Under the pieces are notes generated by a model. It was given only the letters and a program-made list of their open reading frames with translations. It ran no database searches and was not told the origin of the DNA. From an uncultured Gemmatimonadales bacterium (lineage in GTDB: Bacteria; Gemmatimonadota; Gemmatimonadetes; Gemmatimonadales; GWC2-71-9): a DNA stretch of 64,000 nt. Location: assembly GCA_963842945.1 (NCBI GenBank), contig CAWJIM010000019.1:1-64000 (forward strand), written 5' to 3'. The position numbers were made by a program, and so were the translations under genes. This document shows positions 13,896 through 21,854 of this stretch, piece by piece (position 1 is the stretch's first letter; each line of letters begins with the position of its first letter).

Positions 13896-16800
13896 ATGGA
13901 GCCGCAACGGTACCTCCGTTGCCTGGGTCAGCCCGCCCTCTTCACCGCCACCGGTGAGCCGATCCGGTTTCGCACCCGGAAGCATCTCGCCCTGTTGGTT
14001 TACCTGGCAGTCGAGCAGCGAACTCAGCGGCGTGACCGTCTGGCCGAGCTGCTCTGGCCCCGCGTCTCCGCCACCGAGGCTCGCCATTCCCTGGCAACGG
14101 CGCTCTCGGTCCTCCGGCCCCGAGTAGGCATCGATGCTCTGGAGACCAGCCGGGATCAGGTGCGGCTGGTGCCGGGGCGAGTGACGCTGGATCTGGAGCG
14201 ACTCCGGGCGGGAGACATCCTGGGAACGGAGGTCACCGGACCGCTGGCGGTAGCGGCCTTCCTCGACGGCTTCGACATCAACGACTCGGCGGAGTTCACC
14301 CACTGGAAGGACCAGCAGCAGGCGCGGTTGCTCCCGGTCATCAAGGACGCAATGCTGGTCTTGATCGATCGCTGCCGCCGGACGGGAGACACTCGGCAGA
14401 TCGAGCAGGTCGCCGACCGGATGCTGGCGCTGGACGAGCTGAGCGAAGAGGCAATCCGCGCCAAGATGGAGGCTCGAGCCTTCGCCGGAGACCGGCTGAC
14501 CGCGCTGGAGATCTTCGAGGCCTGGAAGAAGCAGCTGGCGGAGGAGCTCCAAGCCGTGCCGTCGGAGCTGGTGGAAGGGATGGCGCTGCGTTTGCGCCGG
14601 CGTGGTTGGGAGCGGACTACCCTAGCAAACGTGCCCAATGTGCCCACCGATCAGTGGCGTGACCGGCCTTTCGTAGGGCGCGCTGCAGAGTACAAAGTCC
14701 TATACGAGCAATGGGAGGCGACAAAACAAGGGCTTTCAGGACACGCGTTGATACTTGGTGACTCTGGAGTTGGCAAAACAACATTGGTCCAGCGGCTCAC
14801 AACCGCAGCGGGATTGGAAGGCGCAGCTATCAGCCGAGTGCAGTGTTACGATCTCGAAAGGGACATCCCGTATTCGACTTTGAGCGGCCTTGTGCTGGGG
14901 TTACTAGATCGTCCAGGCGTATCCGCAACCTCACCCGAAGCGCTGGCCGAGATTTCCAGAACTGTTCTCGAAGTGAGCCACCGCTTCCCTTATCTCCCAG
15001 CTGTTAGTGAGACACGAGGCGAGACAGCACGCATCCGACTAACGGAGGCCTTCCTCCAACTGCTGCAGGCAATTGCTGAGGAGCACCCCGTGATCTTGGT
15101 GCTGGACGACCTACATCTAGCTGACGAAGTGAGCCTAGCAGTACTCCATCTCATCATGCGCCGAGCGCACGGCACACCAATGATGGTAGTTATGATTGCT
15201 CGTGCGGGGGAGTTGAGTCAGTCCTCCCAGGCAATGCGCCTCAGGGAGAGCGTTGTTCCTCTGAGCATCCGAGAAATAGAGCTTCAGCCTCTAGACAACA
15301 GTGAGAGCCATGAGTTACTCCGCTCGCTCATTGTCTCCGATGACTCAAAGCCGACAGACGGTGTGCAGAAGTGGATAGTGCGGGCCGCTGCAGGTTACCC
15401 TATGGTGATTGAGCTGTTAATCCAAGATTGGAGGATTAGCCAAGAAGACTCCCTTGGCTTGGCAATGGGCGCCATGACTACTAGCCTGCGAAGTCAAGGA
15501 TCAGCTCACCTAGCCTATCGTCACATCCTCGATCGGATCTACAGATCGCTTGACAATACGACACAAAACGTTCTGAATCTCGCTGCCGTTCTGGGTCCTC
15601 GCCTGAATGATGTCGGGATGTATGCACTCGTTGACTTGAGCGTCGGTCACACAATGACTGGGATGGCCGAGCTTGTTCACCGTCGGGTTCTGCGGGATGG
15701 TGCATACGGTCTGGAATTCGTGAACGAGTTGGTGCGCGCAGCAGTATACCTGGATATATCCCCATCAGTCAGACGAATTCTTCACAGCAACATCGCTGAT
15801 CGCTTTATCCACGAGCAATCGGGGAGCAGAGAAGACATGGAGCTTGAGATCGCTTGGCATTGCACAAGAGCAGGGCGCCTTGTCGAGGCAACTCCGCATC
15901 TACTGGCTGGAGCTCGCACCGCCATCTTGGCCGGCGCACCATATGAAGCCGAGCGGGGTATTGCCACAGCTCTCGGACAGCTGGTTGGGGGCGACAGAAG
16001 TGAAGCGCTGCTGTTGCTTGCCGAAGCCCTTCAAGAGCAAAGCAAGTGGACAGAATCCTTACAAGTTCTGGATGGTGAGGAGGTCCGACTATCCTCGTTT
16101 GGGGCGGAGATCTTTATACTCAGAACACGAGCTCGTCGGCGCTTAGGGTTCATTGACATTTCAGAGCATCCCGCACTAGCACAAGAACTGCTGAACCTGA
16201 TGCGATCCACCGCGGAGCCTGTCAGCAAGATTCGCGCAGGTGTGGAAGGCGCGTCCGTTCTTGAGACGATGCGCTGCAATTCATTTGCCCCTGCCATGCT
16301 GGACTGCCTGGCGGAGTTGAATGCTGACAAGCTTGGTCTCGATGACACTGCGCACCTGCTGCTCGCGCGCTCCATGCTGCTTTACCAGATGAGGGACTTA
16401 GCGGGGAGTCTCGAGTGTGCGCGGGAGGGAGTAGATCTTCTCGAGAAGAACAATCACCCAAACTCCGTTCTTGCGATGCTTCAGAACGGGGTGGGGGCGA
16501 TATTGGCTAAGCAAGGATTCTATGAAAGATCGATACCGGAATACCTAAAGTGCTATCACACGTCCACTCGAGTGGGAAACGACTGGATATATGTCCAGGC
16601 GAGTGCCAACCTGTCGTTGAGTTTCATGAGGGTAGGTGAGTATGAAAAAGCGATTTCATGGGGTGAGCTCTCTCTAAGACATGGGACAATGCAAAGGCAC
16701 TATGGTTTTGCCCTACAAGGAGCCCAGGGAACGGTCCTCTCCTATGCTATGACGGGACAGAATAGAAGCCGTGTCGAGGAACTAATTGTTGAGACCACCT

Positions 16801-17240
16801 CTGAATTGGCCAAGCGCGCGCCCTCTGGGATATCACAGGCATGGACTTTGATTGCTGCAGATGCGTACGCCCTCATGGGACAGCATACCGACGCAGAGAT
16901 CCGGGCTCGCCAAGCTCTTCAGCTTGAGCGCACACCACTGGACTTCTTTGCAGGACCGTATGCTCGCTGGCTGGCTAAAACCAGCTTCACAGATTATGAG
17001 AAGAAAGAAGCTTACCGCAAAATCGGATCCCTGCTAGAAACATTAGCTCGATATGATGCTCTCGATCAGGCAGATATCCTCACTGCCAAGTGTTGGCTGG
17101 ACAATAGGCAGCGACGATTCGTCCTCGGTGATTTTCGAACAATGCAAGAACATCTGGAGGCGTTGCCGCGAGCAGCGCGGGAACAGCTTGAAAAATTAGG
17201 GATGCTAGACTGTATCGATCACCCTGGAAGGTCAACCTGA
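13896..17240 (+). CDS. SARP/BTAD transcriptional activator with AAA (STAND-type) ATPase and TPR-like C-terminus
   Basis: LALLVYLA..RDRLAELLWP (wHTH), BTAD region, Walker A GDSGVGKT, Walker B LVLDDLH, helical repeats. Confidence 0.9.
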   Translation: MEPQRYLRCLGQPALFTATGEPIRFRTRKHLALLVYLAVEQRTQRRDRLAELLWPRVSATEARHSLATALSVLRPRVGIDALETSRDQVRLVPGRVTLDLERLRAGDILGTEVTGPLAVAAFLDGFDINDSAEFTHWKDQQQARLLPVIKDAMLVLIDRCRRTGDTRQIEQVADRMLALDELSEEAIRAKMEARAFAGDRLTALEIFEAWKKQLAEELQAVPSELVEGMALRLRRRGWERTTLANVPNVPTDQWRDRPFVGRAAEYKVLYEQWEATKQGLSGHALILGDSGVGKTTLVQRLTTAAGLEGAAISRVQCYDLERDIPYSTLSGLVLGLLDRPGVSATSPEALAEISRTVLEVSHRFPYLPAVSETRGETARIRLTEAFLQLLQAIAEEHPVILVLDDLHLADEVSLAVLHLIMRRAHGTPMMVVMIARAGELSQSSQAMRLRESVVPLSIREIELQPLDNSESHELLRSLIVSDDSKPTDGVQKWIVRAAAGYPMVIELLIQDWRISQEDSLGLAMGAMTTSLRSQGSAHLAYRHILDRIYRSLDNTTQNVLNLAAVLGPRLNDVGMYALVDLSVGHTMTGMAELVHRRVLRDGAYGLEFVNELVRAAVYLDISPSVRRILHSNIADRFIHEQSGSREDMELEIAWHCTRAGRLVEATPHLLAGARTAILAGAPYEAERGIATALGQLVGGDRSEALLLLAEALQEQSKWTESLQVLDGEEVRLSSFGAEIFILRTRARRRLGFIDISEHPALAQELLNLMRSTAEPVSKIRAGVEGASVLETMRCNSFAPAMLDCLAELNADKLGLDDTAHLLLARSMLLYQMRDLAGSLECAREGVDLLEKNNHPNSVLAMLQNGVGAILAKQGFYERSIPEYLKCYHTSTRVGNDWIYVQASANLSLSFMRVGEYEKAISWGELSLRHGTMQRHYGFALQGAQGTVLSYAMTGQNRSRVEELIVETTSELAKRAPSGISQAWTLIAADAYALMGQHTDAEIRARQALQLERTPLDFFAGPYARWLAKTSFTDYEKKEAYRKIGSLLETLARYDALDQADILTAKCWLDNRQRRFVLGDFRTMQEHLEALPRAAREQLEKLGMLDCIDHPGRST

Positions 17241-17289
17241 CTTTGTCGTAGTTGCGGCAGTAGTGGTGCTACTACTTATCAGCGCTAGA

Positions 17290-18675
17290 CTACGCCCGAC
17301 GCTTCCACAGCCCTGAACTCGGCCAATTTACGCGCCTCGAACGGTGAGGCTCGGTACTTGGCAATGGGAACGAGGCGCCCTCAATGAGCCGGCGAACCAC
17401 AACGGAGGCGACGACTACGTCCACTAGTTGTGGATCGAACTGCGTTCCTTTGCACTTTTGGAGTTCAGCAATCACAACCTCCAAGGGAAGGCGTTTTCTA
17501 TACGGTCGATCGGTTGTCATGGCGTCTACAGTATCTGCGATCAGAATTATCCTAGCGCCTAAGGGAATGTTCTTGCCTGCGACCCCGTCCGGGTAGCCCT
17601 GCCCATCCCACCGTTCATGGTGATGTCTCACGGAATCTTGGATGAAGCCGTGAAACTTGGAGATAATTCCGACCAGAGCAGAACTCTTGGCAGAATGGGT
17701 CTGCATCAGAGCGGTTTCTTCGTCCGTTAAGCGGCCTTCCTTTCGCAGCAGTGGTGCAAACTCCTCGTGAATTTTTCCTACATCATGCAAGAGAGCGGCA
17801 GTTTCAACTTGCTCTATAATTCTAGCCGACAATCCAAGTTCCACGGCAACGGCCCGGGACATCTCGCTGACTCGAACAGAGTGCCCAGAAGTGTAAGGGT
17901 CGCGGGCTTCTATAGCCTTAACCATTACTTGTAGGAGTTCCTGACCACTATGTTCTAGTTGATGATAGAGACTGTAAACGTGGCGCACCGCAGTGATCGG
18001 AACAATTACGCCTAGTAGCCCTAGTGATCCGAATCCGATCCATCGATCAACTGACGCATATAGGATGGCGATAAGAATTGCGATTAGGCTCGCGCCTAGG
18101 TCATATCCCAGTACTCCACGAGTATTCAGGCTCCAGATCTCACGAAAAGCCCGTTCTGAGCTCAGCGAAACGGCAAGGCTTACCAGAACAGAATTGACCA
18201 GTAGATAGCTGACGGCCAAGACCAAGAACAGGCCTAAGTCGGCCTGAAGGATTCTAGAATTCAGGTGCAGTTCGGGAGCCAGGTAAGACGGCGGAAGATT
18301 GCCGCCGATGCCGGAGTAGATTGTGGCGCCTACGACAACCGCCAAAATCCTTTGAGAAACATTGAAGAGTACCTTTAGTGGTCGGGTGCCGGAGGAAACT
18401 TGGCTGAGGCATGTTGCCGTGCCTGCCATAAGACCTGCCCAGAATCCTCCGAAAAGCAGGCATCCCGCGAGGTGCATCAAGAATGAGGTGGAGCCTTTCG
18501 CCCCAACCCTTAAGTCAGTGTGGAGGGTGTCTAGTATGAAGGCTACGAAAACGAACGTGCCGAGAGGCCACCACCCTGGGGAGGGAAGAGAAAAAGAAGA
18601 GGCGGCCCCGAGCGCCAAAAGTGCGACGGCGCTAGTGGCGACGACGAATGCAGCTGTCCGTATCTGATTAGACAT
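17290..18675 (-). CDS. Membrane HD-GYP phosphodiesterase (multi-TM N-terminal sensor)
   Basis: About 7 hydrophobic segments, then EARDPYTSGHS, LHDVGK, HHHERWDGQGYP, ADTVDAMTTDRPYR. Confidence 0.93.
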   Translation of the reverse strand: MSNQIRTAAFVVATSAVALLALGAASSFSLPSPGWWPLGTFVFVAFILDTLHTDLRVGAKGSTSFLMHLAGCLLFGGFWAGLMAGTATCLSQVSSGTRPLKVLFNVSQRILAVVVGATIYSGIGGNLPPSYLAPELHLNSRILQADLGLFLVLAVSYLLVNSVLVSLAVSLSSERAFREIWSLNTRGVLGYDLGASLIAILIAILYASVDRWIGFGSLGLLGVIVPITAVRHVYSLYHQLEHSGQELLQVMVKAIEARDPYTSGHSVRVSEMSRAVAVELGLSARIIEQVETAALLHDVGKIHEEFAPLLRKEGRLTDEETALMQTHSAKSSALVGIISKFHGFIQDSVRHHHERWDGQGYPDGVAGKNIPLGARIILIADTVDAMTTDRPYRKRLPLEVVIAELQKCKGTQFDPQLVDVVVASVVVRRLIEGASFPLPSTEPHRSRRVNWPSSGLWKRRA

Positions 18676-18705
18676 TATGGAGGATGGGGACCCCGGCCAA
18701 AGTTG

Positions 18706-18789
18706 TTACTTCCAGTCCTGCCCTTCACCTCCGCCGATCAATCTGGCGAAGAAGGCACTTACTCTAGCGATCAAACTGCCTTTCAACAT
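18706..18789 (-). CDS. 27-aa peptide MLKGSLIARVSAFFARLIGGGEGQDWK (not in ORF track)
   Basis: GGGAGGTGA Shine-Dalgarno 5 nt before ATG; stop 30 nt upstream of the HD-GYP start. Confidence 0.75.
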   Translation of the reverse strand: MLKGSLIARVSAFFARLIGGGEGQDWK

Positions 18790-19242
18790 GAGCGTCACCT
18801 CCCTTCGAGACTAAAGACCTCGGGAAGTGGCAAGCCTCGCTATGGCCTACCAGACGCTCCGCTCGACAGCCGCTCGCTCGTCTCCGCTAGTCCCACACCT
18901 GCATACCTGCGAAGACCGGGATCCCCTTTCCTTTTTCCTTTCTGTCTAGGGTCCAACCACCGACAAACCCCTACCGCAACCGTCATACTCCATCGCCTAG
19001 AGTTTCGGCATATGCCCGCATTCCGATGAGCCCACGCCGCAACCCCGCCTGGAGCGGTCGCGAGGGCTGCCTGAGTTGTTTCCTAATGAAAAGGATCCGG
19101 ACGACAGGGGGTGACGTCCGCCCTACAAACTACTGCGCGCAACCGGTCTTGGCTAGACCCCTAAACTGCCCATGGTCGGTCGGTCAGCCGGTCGGAACAG
19201 CATGGCTCAGCATGCCCCGCTGACCCGCCTGACCACCGCCGA

Positions 19243-19989
19243 CTACTCCGGTCTCCGGGTCTCCGTCCACCGGTTGGTCGCATCCAGCACCGCGAACACC
19301 GCCGCCCGCTCGGCGCTCTCCTTGATCTCCGCCGTGCCGCTCAGCAGCAGCGTCTCCCGCCCGCCCAGCCCCTGCACCGCCACGAAGGCGAACTCCCGGT
19401 CGAACCCCTCCACGATCTTGGCCCCCTCCAGCGCCAGGCTCGAGTCCTTGAGCAGCCGGTCCATCACCGCCACCGCCGCCTTGGCCGCCGCCTCCACCCG
19501 GCTCCGGGGAGTGTCCGACGCCTCCTCTTCCGCCGTCTCGGTCTGCCCCCGATACGACAGGGTCACCGAGATCGAGATCCGGTGCGGCCGCCGGCTGGGC
19601 CCCGCGGTCAGGTTCTCGAACAGCACCGTCCGCTGGAGCACCTTTTCCCGGACCGATTCGCGCTCCAGCGCCTCGATCGGCTTCACCTCGGCGGTCTGGG
19701 CGATGCTGATCTTCCGGTGATCGATCTTGAGGCCGAGCTGGGCCAGAAGCGCCGACTCGATGTTGCGCACCAGCTGCTTGGGAGCGAGGCCGGCCTGGGC
19801 CAGCACGTGGACCTCACTCACCTCGCCCAGCGGGGTGGTCACCACCCGGGCGGAAAGAATCCCCTCCAGGCTGGTGAGCAGGTTCTCCGCCCGGCGCACC
19901 CCCCAGGGATCGGGGAGGGCGTCGGCCGCGGAACTCCGCCCCGGCGGGGGCGGGCCTGGCTGCTTGGCACTCCACGTGGGTTCGGTCAT
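19243..19989 (-). CDS. Conserved hypothetical protein with LeuA-allosteric-like C-terminus
   Basis: EVHVL..PKQLVRNIESAL..DHRKISIAQ; C-terminal AAVFAVLDATNR; high GC3. Confidence 0.8.
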   Translation of the reverse strand: MTEPTWSAKQPGPPPPGRSSAADALPDPWGVRRAENLLTSLEGILSARVVTTPLGEVSEVHVLAQAGLAPKQLVRNIESALLAQLGLKIDHRKISIAQTAEVKPIEALERESVREKVLQRTVLFENLTAGPSRRPHRISISVTLSYRGQTETAEEEASDTPRSRVEAAAKAAVAVMDRLLKDSSLALEGAKIVEGFDREFAFVAVQGLGGRETLLLSGTAEIKESAERAAVFAVLDATNRWTETRRPE

Positions 19990-19996
19990 GGTGTGT

Positions 19997-20166
19997 AGTC
20001 GCGAGTCGTGAGTCGCGAGTCAAGCGAAGCGACTCGAAACTCGGTATTCCGGTTGACCTCTAGGCAAACCTTCATCTCAATCGAATCCTGACCTTTGACT
20101 CGTGACTCGTGACTCGTGACTCGTGACTCGTGACTCATGACTCGTGACTCGCGACTCGCGACTCGT
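19997..20166. repeat. Inverted heptamer tandem repeats
   Basis: 10 x GACTCG(T/C) (one GACTCAT) at 20097-20166; about 3.5 complementary G(C/T)GAGTC units at 19997-20021. Confidence 0.9.
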
Positions 20167-20168
20167 CC

Positions 20169-21854
20169 TTACGCCACCGCATTCCGTCCCGCCGCCTTGG
20201 CCCGGTACAGCGCCCGGTCCGCCGTCACCAGCAGGTCATCCTCCGGCTGGCGGCTGTCGAACTCGGAGAGGCCGATGCTCACGGTGATCAGTCCGGCCGG
20301 ATAGCCCAGCCGGCGGCCGATCCCTTCGATCCCTGCCCGGAGCGCCTCGGCCACCCGCATCCCGCCCTGCAGCTCGGTGCGGGTGAGGATAACCACGAAC
20401 TCGTCGCCGCCATACCGCGCCGCCACGTCCGACGCTCGGATCGCGTGGCGGATCTCCTCGGCCACCGCCTTCAGGATCTCGTTGCCCACCTCATGGCCGT
20501 AGCTGTCGTTCACGTCCTTGAAGCGATCCAGATCCATGAACAACACGGCGAAGCCCTCGTTGCTCCGCTTGCAGCGCTCGATCTCGAACACCAGCCGGTC
20601 CCGAAGCACCCGGTAGGTCGAGAGGCCGGTCAGGGAGTCCACCGCGGCCTGGCGCTGCGCCTCTTCCGCCCGCCGCTCCTGGTACGGCGCGCACTGCCGG
20701 AGCGACGCCCTTCCCACCACCGCGGCTTCGGCGAACCGCTGGCAGGTGGTGAAGCCGCAGGCCCCGCAGTCCCAGGGAGTCCCGTTGGGGCTCAGGCCGA
20801 TCTGGTTGATGATCGCCGCCACCGCCGCCTGATCGGGCCGCACCGGCCGCTGCCGGATGGCGAACGCTGCCCCGACACTCGCTACCACCGCGCTGTCCAC
20901 CACCGGCGAAGCGCTCCGAGGCGGCTCGGTGCTGGCCAGCAGCTCCCGCCGCCAGAACAGCTCCTCCCGGGGACCCGAGAGCGGATGATCCAGCGACCCC
21001 TCGGTCGACAGGATGTCCACGAAGCCCAGATCCAGCCGGTCCACCGCCACCGCCCGCGCCACCGACTTGAGCGCCTCCAGCCCCCGCAGCTTCCGGAAGC
21101 GGCGGCTGGAGTAGCGCGCCTCCTCCAGCAGCGCCAGCGGCAGGCCGCCGGCTGCACTGAGATGCCGTCGCCGCTCCTGCGGCACCCGCTCGAAGAAGGT
21201 CGGCTGGGTGAGGAGGTTCACCCCTTGGACCCGGAAGATCTGATCCAGGTCGCTGAAGGTGATCGCGGCGTCGAGCTCGGTAGTGCTGACTGGGGGACAG
21301 ATGCCAGCGTAGGCAATCTTGAGGCCAGGGCCGTATTGGCCCCGGAGATAGCGGGCCTCCGCCACCGCCGGCAGGGTGACCGGAGCGAGGTAGGGCAGCA
21401 GCTCGGGGAACTGGTAGCGCACCGTCTCCACCACCACCGGGTCGGTGGAGCGGATCAGGGTACCCCACGGCTCCTCGTGCCATAGCTTAAGGTATTCAGC
21501 GGCAACGAGTTCATCGCCGATGACACCCCGGGTGACGGCCCGGAAGCCGACCTCGTGGCAGGCGTTGATGACCTGTTCAGGAGTGGCGGGATAGAAGTGG
21601 GCGACGGACTCGGGGCTGAGGATGAGTACGCCGTCTCCCCCCGTGGCGATGGCAAGAGCCCGCCCGATTTCGCCGTTTACCTTGACAGCGCCATGGGGAC
21701 ACACAGCCAGGCACTGACCGGAGCGGATGCACGTCTCATTGTCGATGACAGGCAACAACGGCTCGTCCACCGGCACCGCGATGGCATCGGTGGGGCAGAC
21801 GCGGACGCAGGCCAAGCACGAGACGCAGAGCTCGGCGTCAATGACGAAATTCAA
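20169..21854 (-). CDS. Diguanylate cyclase with ferredoxin and [FeFe]-hydrogenase-like sensor domains
   Basis: CVSCLACVRVCP, CIRSGQCLAVCP, DCGACGFTTC; RASD I-site and intact GGDEF. Confidence 0.9.
   Translation of the reverse strand: MNFVIDAELCVSCLACVRVCPTDAIAVPVDEPLLPVIDNETCIRSGQCLAVCPHGAVKVNGEIGRALAIATGGDGVLILSPESVAHFYPATPEQVINACHEVGFRAVTRGVIGDELVAAEYLKLWHEEPWGTLIRSTDPVVVETVRYQFPELLPYLAPVTLPAVAEARYLRGQYGPGLKIAYAGICPPVSTTELDAAITFSDLDQIFRVQGVNLLTQPTFFERVPQERRRHLSAAGGLPLALLEEARYSSRRFRKLRGLEALKSVARAVAVDRLDLGFVDILSTEGSLDHPLSGPREELFWRRELLASTEPPRSASPVVDSAVVASVGAAFAIRQRPVRPDQAAVAAIINQIGLSPNGTPWDCGACGFTTCQRFAEAAVVGRASLRQCAPYQERRAEEAQRQAAVDSLTGLSTYRVLRDRLVFEIERCKRSNEGFAVLFMDLDRFKDVNDSYGHEVGNEILKAVAEEIRHAIRASDVAARYGGDEFVVILTRTELQGGMRVAEALRAGIEGIGRRLGYPAGLITVSIGLSEFDSRQPEDDLLVTADRALYRAKAAGRNAVA

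Follow-up and report, generated by a model that had tools for sequence, protein, structure and literature searches.

A predicted small gene and leader RNA conserved ahead of MASE9–HD-GYP genes in the class Gemmatimonadetes

We analyzed a 64,000-nucleotide (nt) stretch of DNA from an uncultured Gemmatimonadales bacterium (positions 1 to 64,000 of contig CAWJIM010000019.1; here, the window), which belongs to a 4.3-Mb assembly in 24 contigs (GCA_963842945.1), and concentrated on a locus in which a very small open reading frame (ORF) lies on the minus strand ahead of a gene for a membrane protein with an HD-GYP domain. The closest relatives of the window that are named in the protein database are Gemmatimonadales. 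The locus is one copy of a conserved module of the class Gemmatimonadetes, made up of a gene whose product resembles the regulatory domain of LeuA, a leader RNA with the small ORF, the HD-GYP gene with its MASE9 membrane domain, and, head-on to the latter, a gene for a probably AfsR-like regulator. The synteny of the four genes is conserved. Judged from sequence, the best-supported new elements are the small gene, which occurs class-wide, and an uncatalogued leader RNA that appears to tie it to translation of the HD-GYP protein. As the best explanation of the whole, we propose that the leader gates the small ORF, that HD-GYP translation is coupled to synthesis of the peptide, and that the peptide is a partner of the MASE9 domain; we offer this tentatively and give it, taken entire, slightly less than an even chance of being right. 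No description of the locus, the peptide, or the leader was found in open-access papers and bioRxiv.

A first-pass annotation of the window had described the locus as a candidate peptide-signaling system. When the sequence was read again, its genes, gaps, and motifs all lay where it had placed them. The peptide gene has a strong Shine-Dalgarno sequence (SD; GGGAGG, 8 nt before the ATG), exactly 30 nt separate the small-ORF stop from the HD-GYP ATG, and the HD-GYP gene converges on a BTAD-ATPase-tetratricopeptide repeat (TPR) gene across a 49-nt gap (Table 1). The catalytic signature of HD-GYP domains is HD plus HHExxDGxGYP, and both motifs are intact in the translation (LLHDVGK and HHERWDGQGYP).

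The small ORF and its peptide

Among 60 relatives, drawn from three families of the order, we retrieved 30 loci with an orthologous HD-GYP gene and found an equivalent small ORF in all 29 loci having upstream DNA (the remaining one, L003, ends at a contig end), behind the sequence GGRGGTGACGC and 20 to 60 nt before the HD-GYP start. The locus set was enlarged by searching 401 phylum genomes for the motif and by targeted locus retrieval, and a regular-expression scan of 93 loci recovered the small ORF in 85. Of the other 8, six were truncated at the end of a contig or locus (L003, L039, L043, L051, L088, and L096); one (L006) had a variant SD, with the small ORF nevertheless visible by inspection, and one (L100) was a pattern match away from the MASE9 gene of that genome. 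Furthermore, the small ORF was present in 7/7 loci from two more families of the same class (f6 and f7; families are numbered f1, f2, and so on), which had been located via the MASE9 domain and not via the RNA motif. Position, SD (with a spacing of 7 to 9 nt), and frame were kept across loci. The first-pass annotation had named HD-GYP loci lacking a conserved small ORF as the finding that would speak against it; such loci were sought, and the small ORF turned out to be conserved across the class.

Among the 85 ORFs, the start codon was ATG in 78, GTG in 6, and TTG in 1, and the stop codon was TAA in 39, TAG in 29, and TGA in 17. For 12 equal-length ORFs of the genus, the ratio of nonsynonymous to synonymous polymorphism (pN/pS) was 0.44 in frame versus 0.72 and 1.57 in the shifted frames, which held 22 and 12 stops. 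The mean pairwise nucleotide difference was 0.36, 0.24, and 0.44 by codon position, with the maximum at the third. These patterns bear on the reading that the small ORF is untranslated and that the region is only a noncoding RNA element whose open frame is a by-product of RNA conservation. Consistent with such a reading, the ORF start AUGUUGAAA and its flanks are conserved in nucleotide sequence and are involved in predicted pairing, and the peptide has no family or entry in Pfam or NCBIfam, while a 30-residue form of it gave no usable match in the protein atlas; this silence may be explained by the size of the peptide, which is below what gene callers usually report. Nevertheless, a by-product of RNA conservation would not be expected to vary inside the ORF mostly at third positions, with the lowest pN/pS in frame and with stops in the other frames, nor to keep frame, strong SD at its 7- to 9-nt spacing, length range, and C-terminal Trp codon in 85 distinct sequences class-wide. 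We therefore regard the noncoding reading as very improbable, and by these sequence criteria the small ORF is a genuine protein-coding gene.

The 85 peptides were all distinct, with lengths of 15 to 35 residues (median, 24; 14 to 35 over all loci). Trp was the last residue in 19 and the penultimate one in 61 of them (80/85), and an Asp or Glu stood four residues before it in 51 of 81. In the alignment, the N-terminal two-thirds was hydrophobic but variable in sequence and the tail was better conserved, the best-conserved residues being the last 6 to 10. The general pattern thus comprises a hydrophobic stretch and, after it, (D/E)-x3-W-(x)-stop; the ending GG..(D/N)W proposed in the first-pass annotation is found in this genome and does not extend to the peptides at large.

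The same annotation had suggested that the peptide is a secreted pheromone, and nothing was found to support this. By eye, no signal peptide or family-wide leader-cleavage pattern was seen in the peptides, and a Pfam scan of the five locus proteins gave no exporter, processing enzyme, protease, permease, or histidine kinase (exporters elsewhere in the genome were not searched for). The same scan gave no AgrB- or ComQ-like domain, so that the locus does not have the makeup of agr or comQXP. Of the earlier interpretation, what stood was the small ORF, in fact class-wide, the regulator synteny, order-wide, and the LeuA-like fold; secretion gained no support.

The leader RNA and coupled translation

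The first-pass annotation was right about the size of the roughly 450-nt gap 5′ of the small ORF (453 nt) and wrong in treating it as empty, since a conserved structured RNA leader lies inside it. In an alignment of 15 intergenic regions of the genus, a block of about 150 nt 5′ of the ORF was near-invariant and better conserved than the ORF itself. Rfam 15, including its c-di-GMP (cyclic di-GMP) riboswitches, gave no match at an E value of ≤1 in 18676-19242, and a scan of 17000-20300 gave only two below-threshold matches, both outside the leader. The leader of this genome folded at −115.7 kcal/mol (z = −3.5), in agreement with the RNAalifold consensus on five elements (P1, P2, helix A, P4, and P5). 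Two of these cover the start of the small ORF: in P5, ACUUCCC pairs with the SD (GGGAGGU), and in helix A, GAGCGUC pairs with GACGCUC, the spacer between the SD and the small-ORF ATG. We counted pairs of helix A, P4, and P5 in 45 leaders from families f1 and f3. Standard pairs occupied 94.4% of the cells, compared with 39 to 54% when the partners were slid, and changes on both sides were seen in 8 pairs versus 2.9 in shuffles (0/500 shuffles reached that number); in the P4 hairpin, 5/8 pairs were compensatory. These results indicate that the leader is a conserved, covarying RNA structure. In family f2, the leader appears to follow a different design that would still cover the SD, with GCGGAGCCAACCUU opposite AAGGGAGGUGACGC and an apical hairpin between them (by eye, outside the pair counts).

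A long-range helix, P1, joins the 5′ end of the leader to the nucleotides that lie between the end of the small ORF and the HD-GYP ATG. RNAduplex predicted P1 in 27/27 loci (z from −0.7 to −5.0; 30 shuffles each). Across 82 distinct loci, cognate P1 arms had a mean energy of −42.0 kcal/mol, versus −34.6 (standard deviation, 6.4) for noncognate arms, and arm pairs crossed between families were the weakest (−34.2 and −30.7 versus −43.5 and −39.8 kcal/mol for the cognate pairs). Moreover, the arms differ by clade and keep their complementarity, as in GGGGAUCCCGG/CCGGGAUCCCC versus CCCCCGACUCCGGC/GCCGGAGUCGGGGG. The 3′ arm begins 0 to 9 nt past the small-ORF stop, and the HD-GYP ATG has no SD of its own, being preceded here by the pyrimidine-rich CCCCATCCTCCATA. 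The downstream start region is thus predicted, with covariation, to lie in a helix that a ribosome completing the small ORF would melt, which is the arrangement of leader-peptide coupling. Because the small-ORF SD and the HD-GYP start region are both paired and the latter lacks its own SD, HD-GYP synthesis is probably coupled to translation of the small ORF.

We envisage the following sequence of events. In a resting fold, the SD and spacer of the small ORF would be paired with upstream leader segments, and the leader 5′ end would be paired with the 20 to 40 nt that separate the small ORF from the HD-GYP start codon. Some input (a ligand, a protein, or temperature) would free the ribosome-binding site of the small ORF, and a ribosome reaching the small-ORF stop would unwind the 3′ arm of P1. 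Since that ribosome would have to unwind P1, no HD-GYP protein would be made without the peptide, and the two would be made at roughly the same frequency.

The leader also carries a repeated word, (G/U)AGCG, which occurred 4.1 times per leader (range, 2 to 7) in 82 loci, versus 0.44 times in shuffles and 0.11 times for the complementary word. The repeat is strand specific, occupies 18810-18935 in the window, and recurs in the P4 loop (AUAGCGA); it might be a protein- or RNA-contact motif. A TRAP-like (trp RNA-binding attenuation protein-like) array of (G/U)AG triplets was considered and rejected: 8.5 triplets were present versus 5.2 expected, but chains with 2- to 3-nt spacers comprised only 2 to 3 units. 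A sigma-70 promoter scan returned 0 sites, and terminator-like sites were uninformative. Among metatranscriptomes, only three runs held a small share (0.06) of the words of the locus. In one soil run, contigs covered 18767-18919, including a 97-nt contig without differences, in a stretch that is shared by relatives and with the strand not assigned; these contigs are no measure of expression.

Candidate partners of the peptide

The HD-GYP protein matched HD_5 (PF13487) at 118.1 bits (cutoff, 27.2) over residues 250 to 417, covering profile positions 2 to 170 of 170, and MASE9 (PF20972) at 40.4 bits (cutoff, 24.3) over residues 92 to 210; PF20972 was in the precomputed annotation of all 120 homologues among the matches listed. 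The protein is accordingly predicted to be a multipass membrane sensor with a class II c-di-GMP phosphodiesterase domain. One genome (G032, contigs C131 and C106) holds two full-length MASE9–HD-GYP orthologues, with 69% and 66% identity to the query. The paper that defined MASE9 suggests that a ligand binds within the membrane; it names no ligand and knows of a single member that has been studied, a poorly expressed one (10.1101/2021.11.05.467447).

The first-pass annotation had proposed that the peptide is sensed by the membrane domain of the HD-GYP protein, and cofolding with MASE9 lent this weak support. The input was the 30-residue form of the peptide (with three extra N-terminal residues) and the first 250 residues of the HD-GYP protein, with 37-row alignments for each. 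The pair scored 0.45 and the best of three controls scored 0.00; in the benchmark, this mark was attained for 116 of the 157 solved complexes and for 2 of the 215 mismatched pairs, and scores of ≤0.60 accounted for only 18 of the 157 complexes and for both mismatches that passed. Runs agreed in at least 91% of contacts, with a partner pLDDT (predicted local distance difference test score) of at least 60. In the explanation that we favor, the peptide, which combines a hydrophobic helix, an acidic residue, and a C-terminal Trp that hardly varies, would most likely stay with MASE9 as a comade subunit or an intramembrane ligand and would tune the phosphodiesterase activity; this last step is the weakest of the proposal. 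The constant hydrophobic character and the C-terminal Trp argue that the peptide also acts as a molecule.

A number of observations weigh against this explanation. It presupposes an input that would open the leader. Helix A and the helix GCGGAGC/GUGACGC are invariant and therefore carry no covariation evidence, and translation of the small ORF is predicted from sequence, with RNA-library contigs that are of unassigned strand and cover part of the leader. An 18-residue window with a mean Kyte-Doolittle value of at least 1.6 was found in 40 of the 79 peptides of testable length (a 15-residue window reached 1.6 in 52/85), some family f2 peptides are amphipathic with acidic residues, and some peptides have merely 14 to 17 residues. 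The cofold pass falls in the weak class, in which passes are mostly wrong unless the pairing was already probable in advance, and its controls were unrelated 30-residue proteins, with no other hydrophobic helices among them, while the peptide itself bore the three extra residues. In addition, the synteny with the TPR regulator is equally compatible with another receptor.

As the leader RNA ties the peptide to HD-GYP translation, the small ORF could also be a purely cis-acting leader peptide, whose translation or stalling opens the HD-GYP start and whose released product has no function. In a variant of this reading, (D/E)xxxW-(x)-stop would serve to arrest the nascent chain or to slow termination, as in tnaC, ermCL, and secM. 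The HD-GYP start region does lie in a predicted helix, which has to give way to any ribosome that terminates on the small ORF, the best-conserved last 6 to 10 residues would sit in the ribosomal tunnel at termination, and many of the peptides are too short for a membrane span; known leader peptides fall in the same size range of 14 to 35 residues. However, the N-terminal two-thirds is hydrophobic in all clades despite sequence change, which arrest does not need, and all three stop codons are in use, which implies no particular release factor. The cofold pass with MASE9, weak as it is, likewise counts against a functionless product. We consider an exclusively cis-acting role unlikely.

The gene that converges on the HD-GYP gene offers a second possible receptor. 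Its product matched AAA_16 at 85.1 bits (cutoff, 32.6) over residues 258 to 432 and BTAD at 24.2 bits (cutoff, 22.1) over residues 143 to 226, and its C-terminal TPR region gave matches under the cutoff (TPR_12, 26.5 bits versus 30.1; TPR_2, 22.7 bits); no N-terminal winged-helix match was listed in Pfam. A convergent homologue of about 1,000 to 1,200 residues lies directly 3′ of the HD-GYP gene in 15 loci of the genus, one of 1,008 to 1,273 residues follows it in 3/3 f2/f3 loci when longer flanks are taken, and a homologue was found in 19/20 further loci from other f1 genera and f2, being absent from G267. The regulator has diverged to 24 to 27% identity across the order while the gene linkage was kept, and its place in the module, as asserted in the first-pass annotation, is borne out. 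The notion that the regulator is limited to the genus was rejected: short flanks had held just its divergent C-terminal part.

The peptide could be a ligand of this regulator, as the first-pass annotation had also suggested, either as an intracellular signal or as a quorum signal that is exported and reimported, with its acidic-Trp C-terminal tail read by the TPR domain; the regulator would then activate the transcript of leader, small ORF, and HD-GYP gene and so lower c-di-GMP. C-terminal peptide tails are often bound by TPR domains, and the peptide presumably resembles the short hydrophobic precursors of the SHP/ComS type, whose active C-terminal part has acidic and aromatic residues. The linkage of regulator, peptide gene, and HD-GYP gene across the order despite the low regulator identity would fit such a role, as would the occurrence of a different peptide in each of 85 loci, although adjacency within a clade may be simple inheritance. 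The architecture, on the other hand, is BTAD plus AAA_16 plus a putative TPR region, which resembles that of the STAND (signal transduction ATPases with numerous domains) protein AfsR and not that of RRNPP receptors, in which the TPR is joined directly to a DNA-binding or phosphatase domain. Moreover, a signal would have two membranes to cross in these bacteria, and the peptides show no signal peptide and the five locus genes no exporter, protease, or permease in Pfam; the C-terminal motif is strongly conserved among species of the genus, without a pherotype split; and the genome itself holds about 12 weaker paralogue matches to the N-terminal part of the regulator, so that such regulators are common. 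On balance we think it improbable that the regulator is the receptor.

Returning to the explanation that we favor, the conserved cotranslated peptide is a concrete, synthesizable candidate partner for MASE9. Should the coupling hold, gating of phosphodiesterase translation by a small ORF would add a form of c-di-GMP control that was not found in the open-access and bioRxiv literature. The leader itself is a well-supported structured RNA outside Rfam that is widespread in soil Gemmatimonadetes.

Neighboring genes, distribution, and known systems

The coordinates of the features discussed are collected in Table 1. Within the window, the G+C content dips to 0.529 at 16001-18000, compared with about 0.62 to 0.69 elsewhere; the dip takes in the 3′ portions of both convergent genes, that of the regulator gene being the portion that encodes the TPR region.

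Table 1. Positions of genes, gaps, and RNA elements in the window
Feature	Position	Strand	Size	Remark
BTAD + AAA_16 + TPR (probably AfsR-like STAND) regulator	13896-17240	+	1,114 aa	
Intergenic gap between convergent regulator and HD-GYP genes	17241-17289		49 nt	
MASE9 + HD_5 (HD-GYP) protein	17290-18675	-	461 aa	
P1, 3′ arm of long-range helix	18679-18699	-		Between small-ORF stop and HD-GYP ATG
Small ORF, MLKGSLIARVSAFFARLIGGGEGQDWK	18789-18706	-	27 codons + stop	Translation
Gap 5′ of small ORF, up to 248-aa gene	18790-19242		453 nt	
Structured 5′ leader RNA (predicted)	18790-18945	-		RNAalifold and pair counts
Invariant GGUGACGC	18799-18792	-		
SD GGGAGG	18803-18798	-		
Anti-SD ACUUCCC	18828-18822	-		
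P4 hairpin	18851-18829	-		Loop AUAGCGA
Invariant GAGCGGAGC	18864-18856	-		
P2	18916-18880	-		
P1, 5′ arm core	18926-18914	-		
248-aa protein gene	19243-19989	-		No Pfam or NCBIfam family
Fer4/Fe-hydrogenase-like/FeS-cluster + GGDEF diguanylate cyclase (predicted)	20169-21854	-	561 aa	

The gene for the 248-residue protein was directly upstream in 27/30 loci, the 3 misses being cut by locus ends, and it was present in the f6 and f7 loci as well. The protein belonged to no family of Pfam or NCBIfam, and its sequence found no match in the PDB below an E value of 1. Its family numbered 1,529 representatives at an E value of ≤0.001; the named relatives were Gemmatimonadota hypothetical proteins only, and the protein atlas gave unnamed Gemmatimonadota clusters only. 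An AlphaFold2 model (pLDDT, 88.9) had an N-terminal alpha-beta-beta-alpha-beta arrangement and a C-terminal repeat of 2 × (beta-beta-beta-alpha), and Foldseek matched it to LeuA (3fig; E value = 1.4 × 10−6, probability 1.0) and to the regulatory domain of the citramalate synthase LiCMS (3f6g; target-normalized template modeling score, 0.55). The label "LeuA-like" in the first-pass annotation thus finds its match in the fold of the regulatory, amino-acid-binding domain and none in a sequence family, and so it is valid at the fold level only. We also tried to use co-loss of this gene and the HD-GYP gene over genomes of the genus, and this was unusable, the apparent absences being contig ends at or just after the leader.

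With this protein in the picture, a broader scheme can be drawn, in which the Trp-ended peptide would be a dedicated ligand of the MASE9 pocket, of the TPR domain, or of both, and its synthesis would be set by a (G/U)AGCG-repeat riboregulator, perhaps read by the LeuA-type protein, linking a metabolite to the peptide and to c-di-GMP breakdown. If this scheme were true, the peptide would be the first ligand of any MASE9 domain, the leader would be a new class of riboregulator, and the locus would be a self-contained path from a ribosomal peptide to c-di-GMP of a hitherto undescribed kind. We find the scheme doubtful as a whole.

Farther upstream, the GGDEF protein matched Pfam GGDEF (E value = 3.3 × 10−40) together with two Fer4 motifs, Fe_hyd_lg_C (similar to the large subunit of Fe-only hydrogenase), and a putative FeS cluster domain, which suggests a redox- or iron-sulfur-sensing diguanylate cyclase. 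A homologue lay upstream of the 248-residue protein gene in 4/4 loci of the genus and in 0/3 f2/f3 loci; the cyclase, just upstream as annotated, is thus a genus-specific neighbor. Between the GGDEF gene and the 248-residue protein gene, at 19985-20172, about ten tandem GAGTCRC-like heptads are followed by their inverted complement and fold into a long hairpin (−72.3 kcal/mol, z = −3.3), where Rfam gave only a spurious below-threshold match to MIR1883.

The exact leader motif occurred once in the genome of the window and in 134 of the 401 phylum genomes sampled (f1, 69/166; f2, 57/93; f3, 5/5; f6, 2/30; others, 0), and a reversed-pattern control gave 1 match. A minority of the matches were coincidental (for example, L037, L040, and L045); they lay within a conserved but unrelated coding region, and neither an HD-GYP gene nor the 248-residue protein gene was nearby. 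These appear to be chance resemblances of the two end motifs. A model of the MASE9 N-terminal part found orthologues in 233/401 genomes, including 19/70 from f7 and 8/30 from f6, so that the module is more frequent than the exact pattern indicates. Three unpublished genomes (G003, G106, and G198) are among those tallied, and no claim depends on these three alone. Metagenome contigs often break in or just after the leader or small ORF (for example, the ends of G026:C104 and G005:C334 and the start of G002:C55), and many motif matches were within about 30 to 170 nt of a contig end. The breaks probably occur because this stretch is shared by co-occurring species, and as a result the HD-GYP gene seems absent from some genomes.

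Several known systems share features with the locus. The regulatory leader peptides of tnaC, ermCL, secM-secA, and mifM-yidC2 are coupled to RNA structure. As in these, a short upstream ORF here would remodel an mRNA that hides the next start, and the C-terminal residues are the best conserved. In contrast to them, the ribosome-binding site of the small ORF is itself predicted to be sequestered by a conserved leader, which would make two layers of control, and the peptide keeps a hydrophobic character that arrest does not need, stalling being only putative here.

Peptide signaling through SHP/Rgg and ComS/ComR (RRNPP) in streptococci, and through agr and comQXP, provides a second comparison. 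Like the SHP and ComS genes, the small ORF lies close to a gene for a TPR regulator, and its hydrophobic product is short, lacks a classical signal peptide, and bears an acidic residue and Trp toward the C terminus. However, the regulator is a STAND protein, unlike RRNPP receptors; the locus genes scanned included no processing or transport genes and no histidine kinase, unlike SHP/Rgg and agr/comQXP; and, among the conserved partners, it is the membrane HD-GYP gene and not the regulator gene that lies nearest to the peptide gene. In the DSF-RpfC-RpfG (diffusible signal factor) pathway of Xanthomonas, a fatty-acid signal acts through a hybrid kinase sensor that phosphorylates a REC–HD-GYP protein. 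The output there, in a cell-cell signaling pathway, is likewise an HD-GYP c-di-GMP phosphodiesterase, whereas here the membrane sensor domain (MASE9) is part of the HD-GYP protein itself and a peptide made by ribosomes is the candidate signal.

MgrB and SafA, which act on PhoQ, are examples of small membrane proteins by which a sensor is modulated. A further small-protein/sensor case is reported for DbfQ with DbfRS of Vibrio cholerae (PMC12714742). As in these cases, a very small protein is encoded beside a membrane sensor and is proposed to bind it and tune its output. Here, though, the sensor acts through an HD-GYP c-di-GMP phosphodiesterase in place of a histidine kinase. Moreover, the structured leader of the sensor gene itself contains the peptide gene, and the two genes are apparently coupled in translation; many of the peptides fall short of the length of a membrane span; and binding is predicted by a weak cofold. 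Finally, in Clostridioides difficile, small membrane-associated proteins are reported to be encoded behind c-di-GMP riboswitches (PMC13724677). The two cases have in common a structured 5′ leader that controls, or here would control, the gene for a small, possibly membrane-associated protein within c-di-GMP signaling; in the Gemmatimonadetes, by contrast, the leader matches no Rfam c-di-GMP riboswitch or other family, and it is followed by the small ORF and then by a phosphodiesterase gene that is probably coupled to it.

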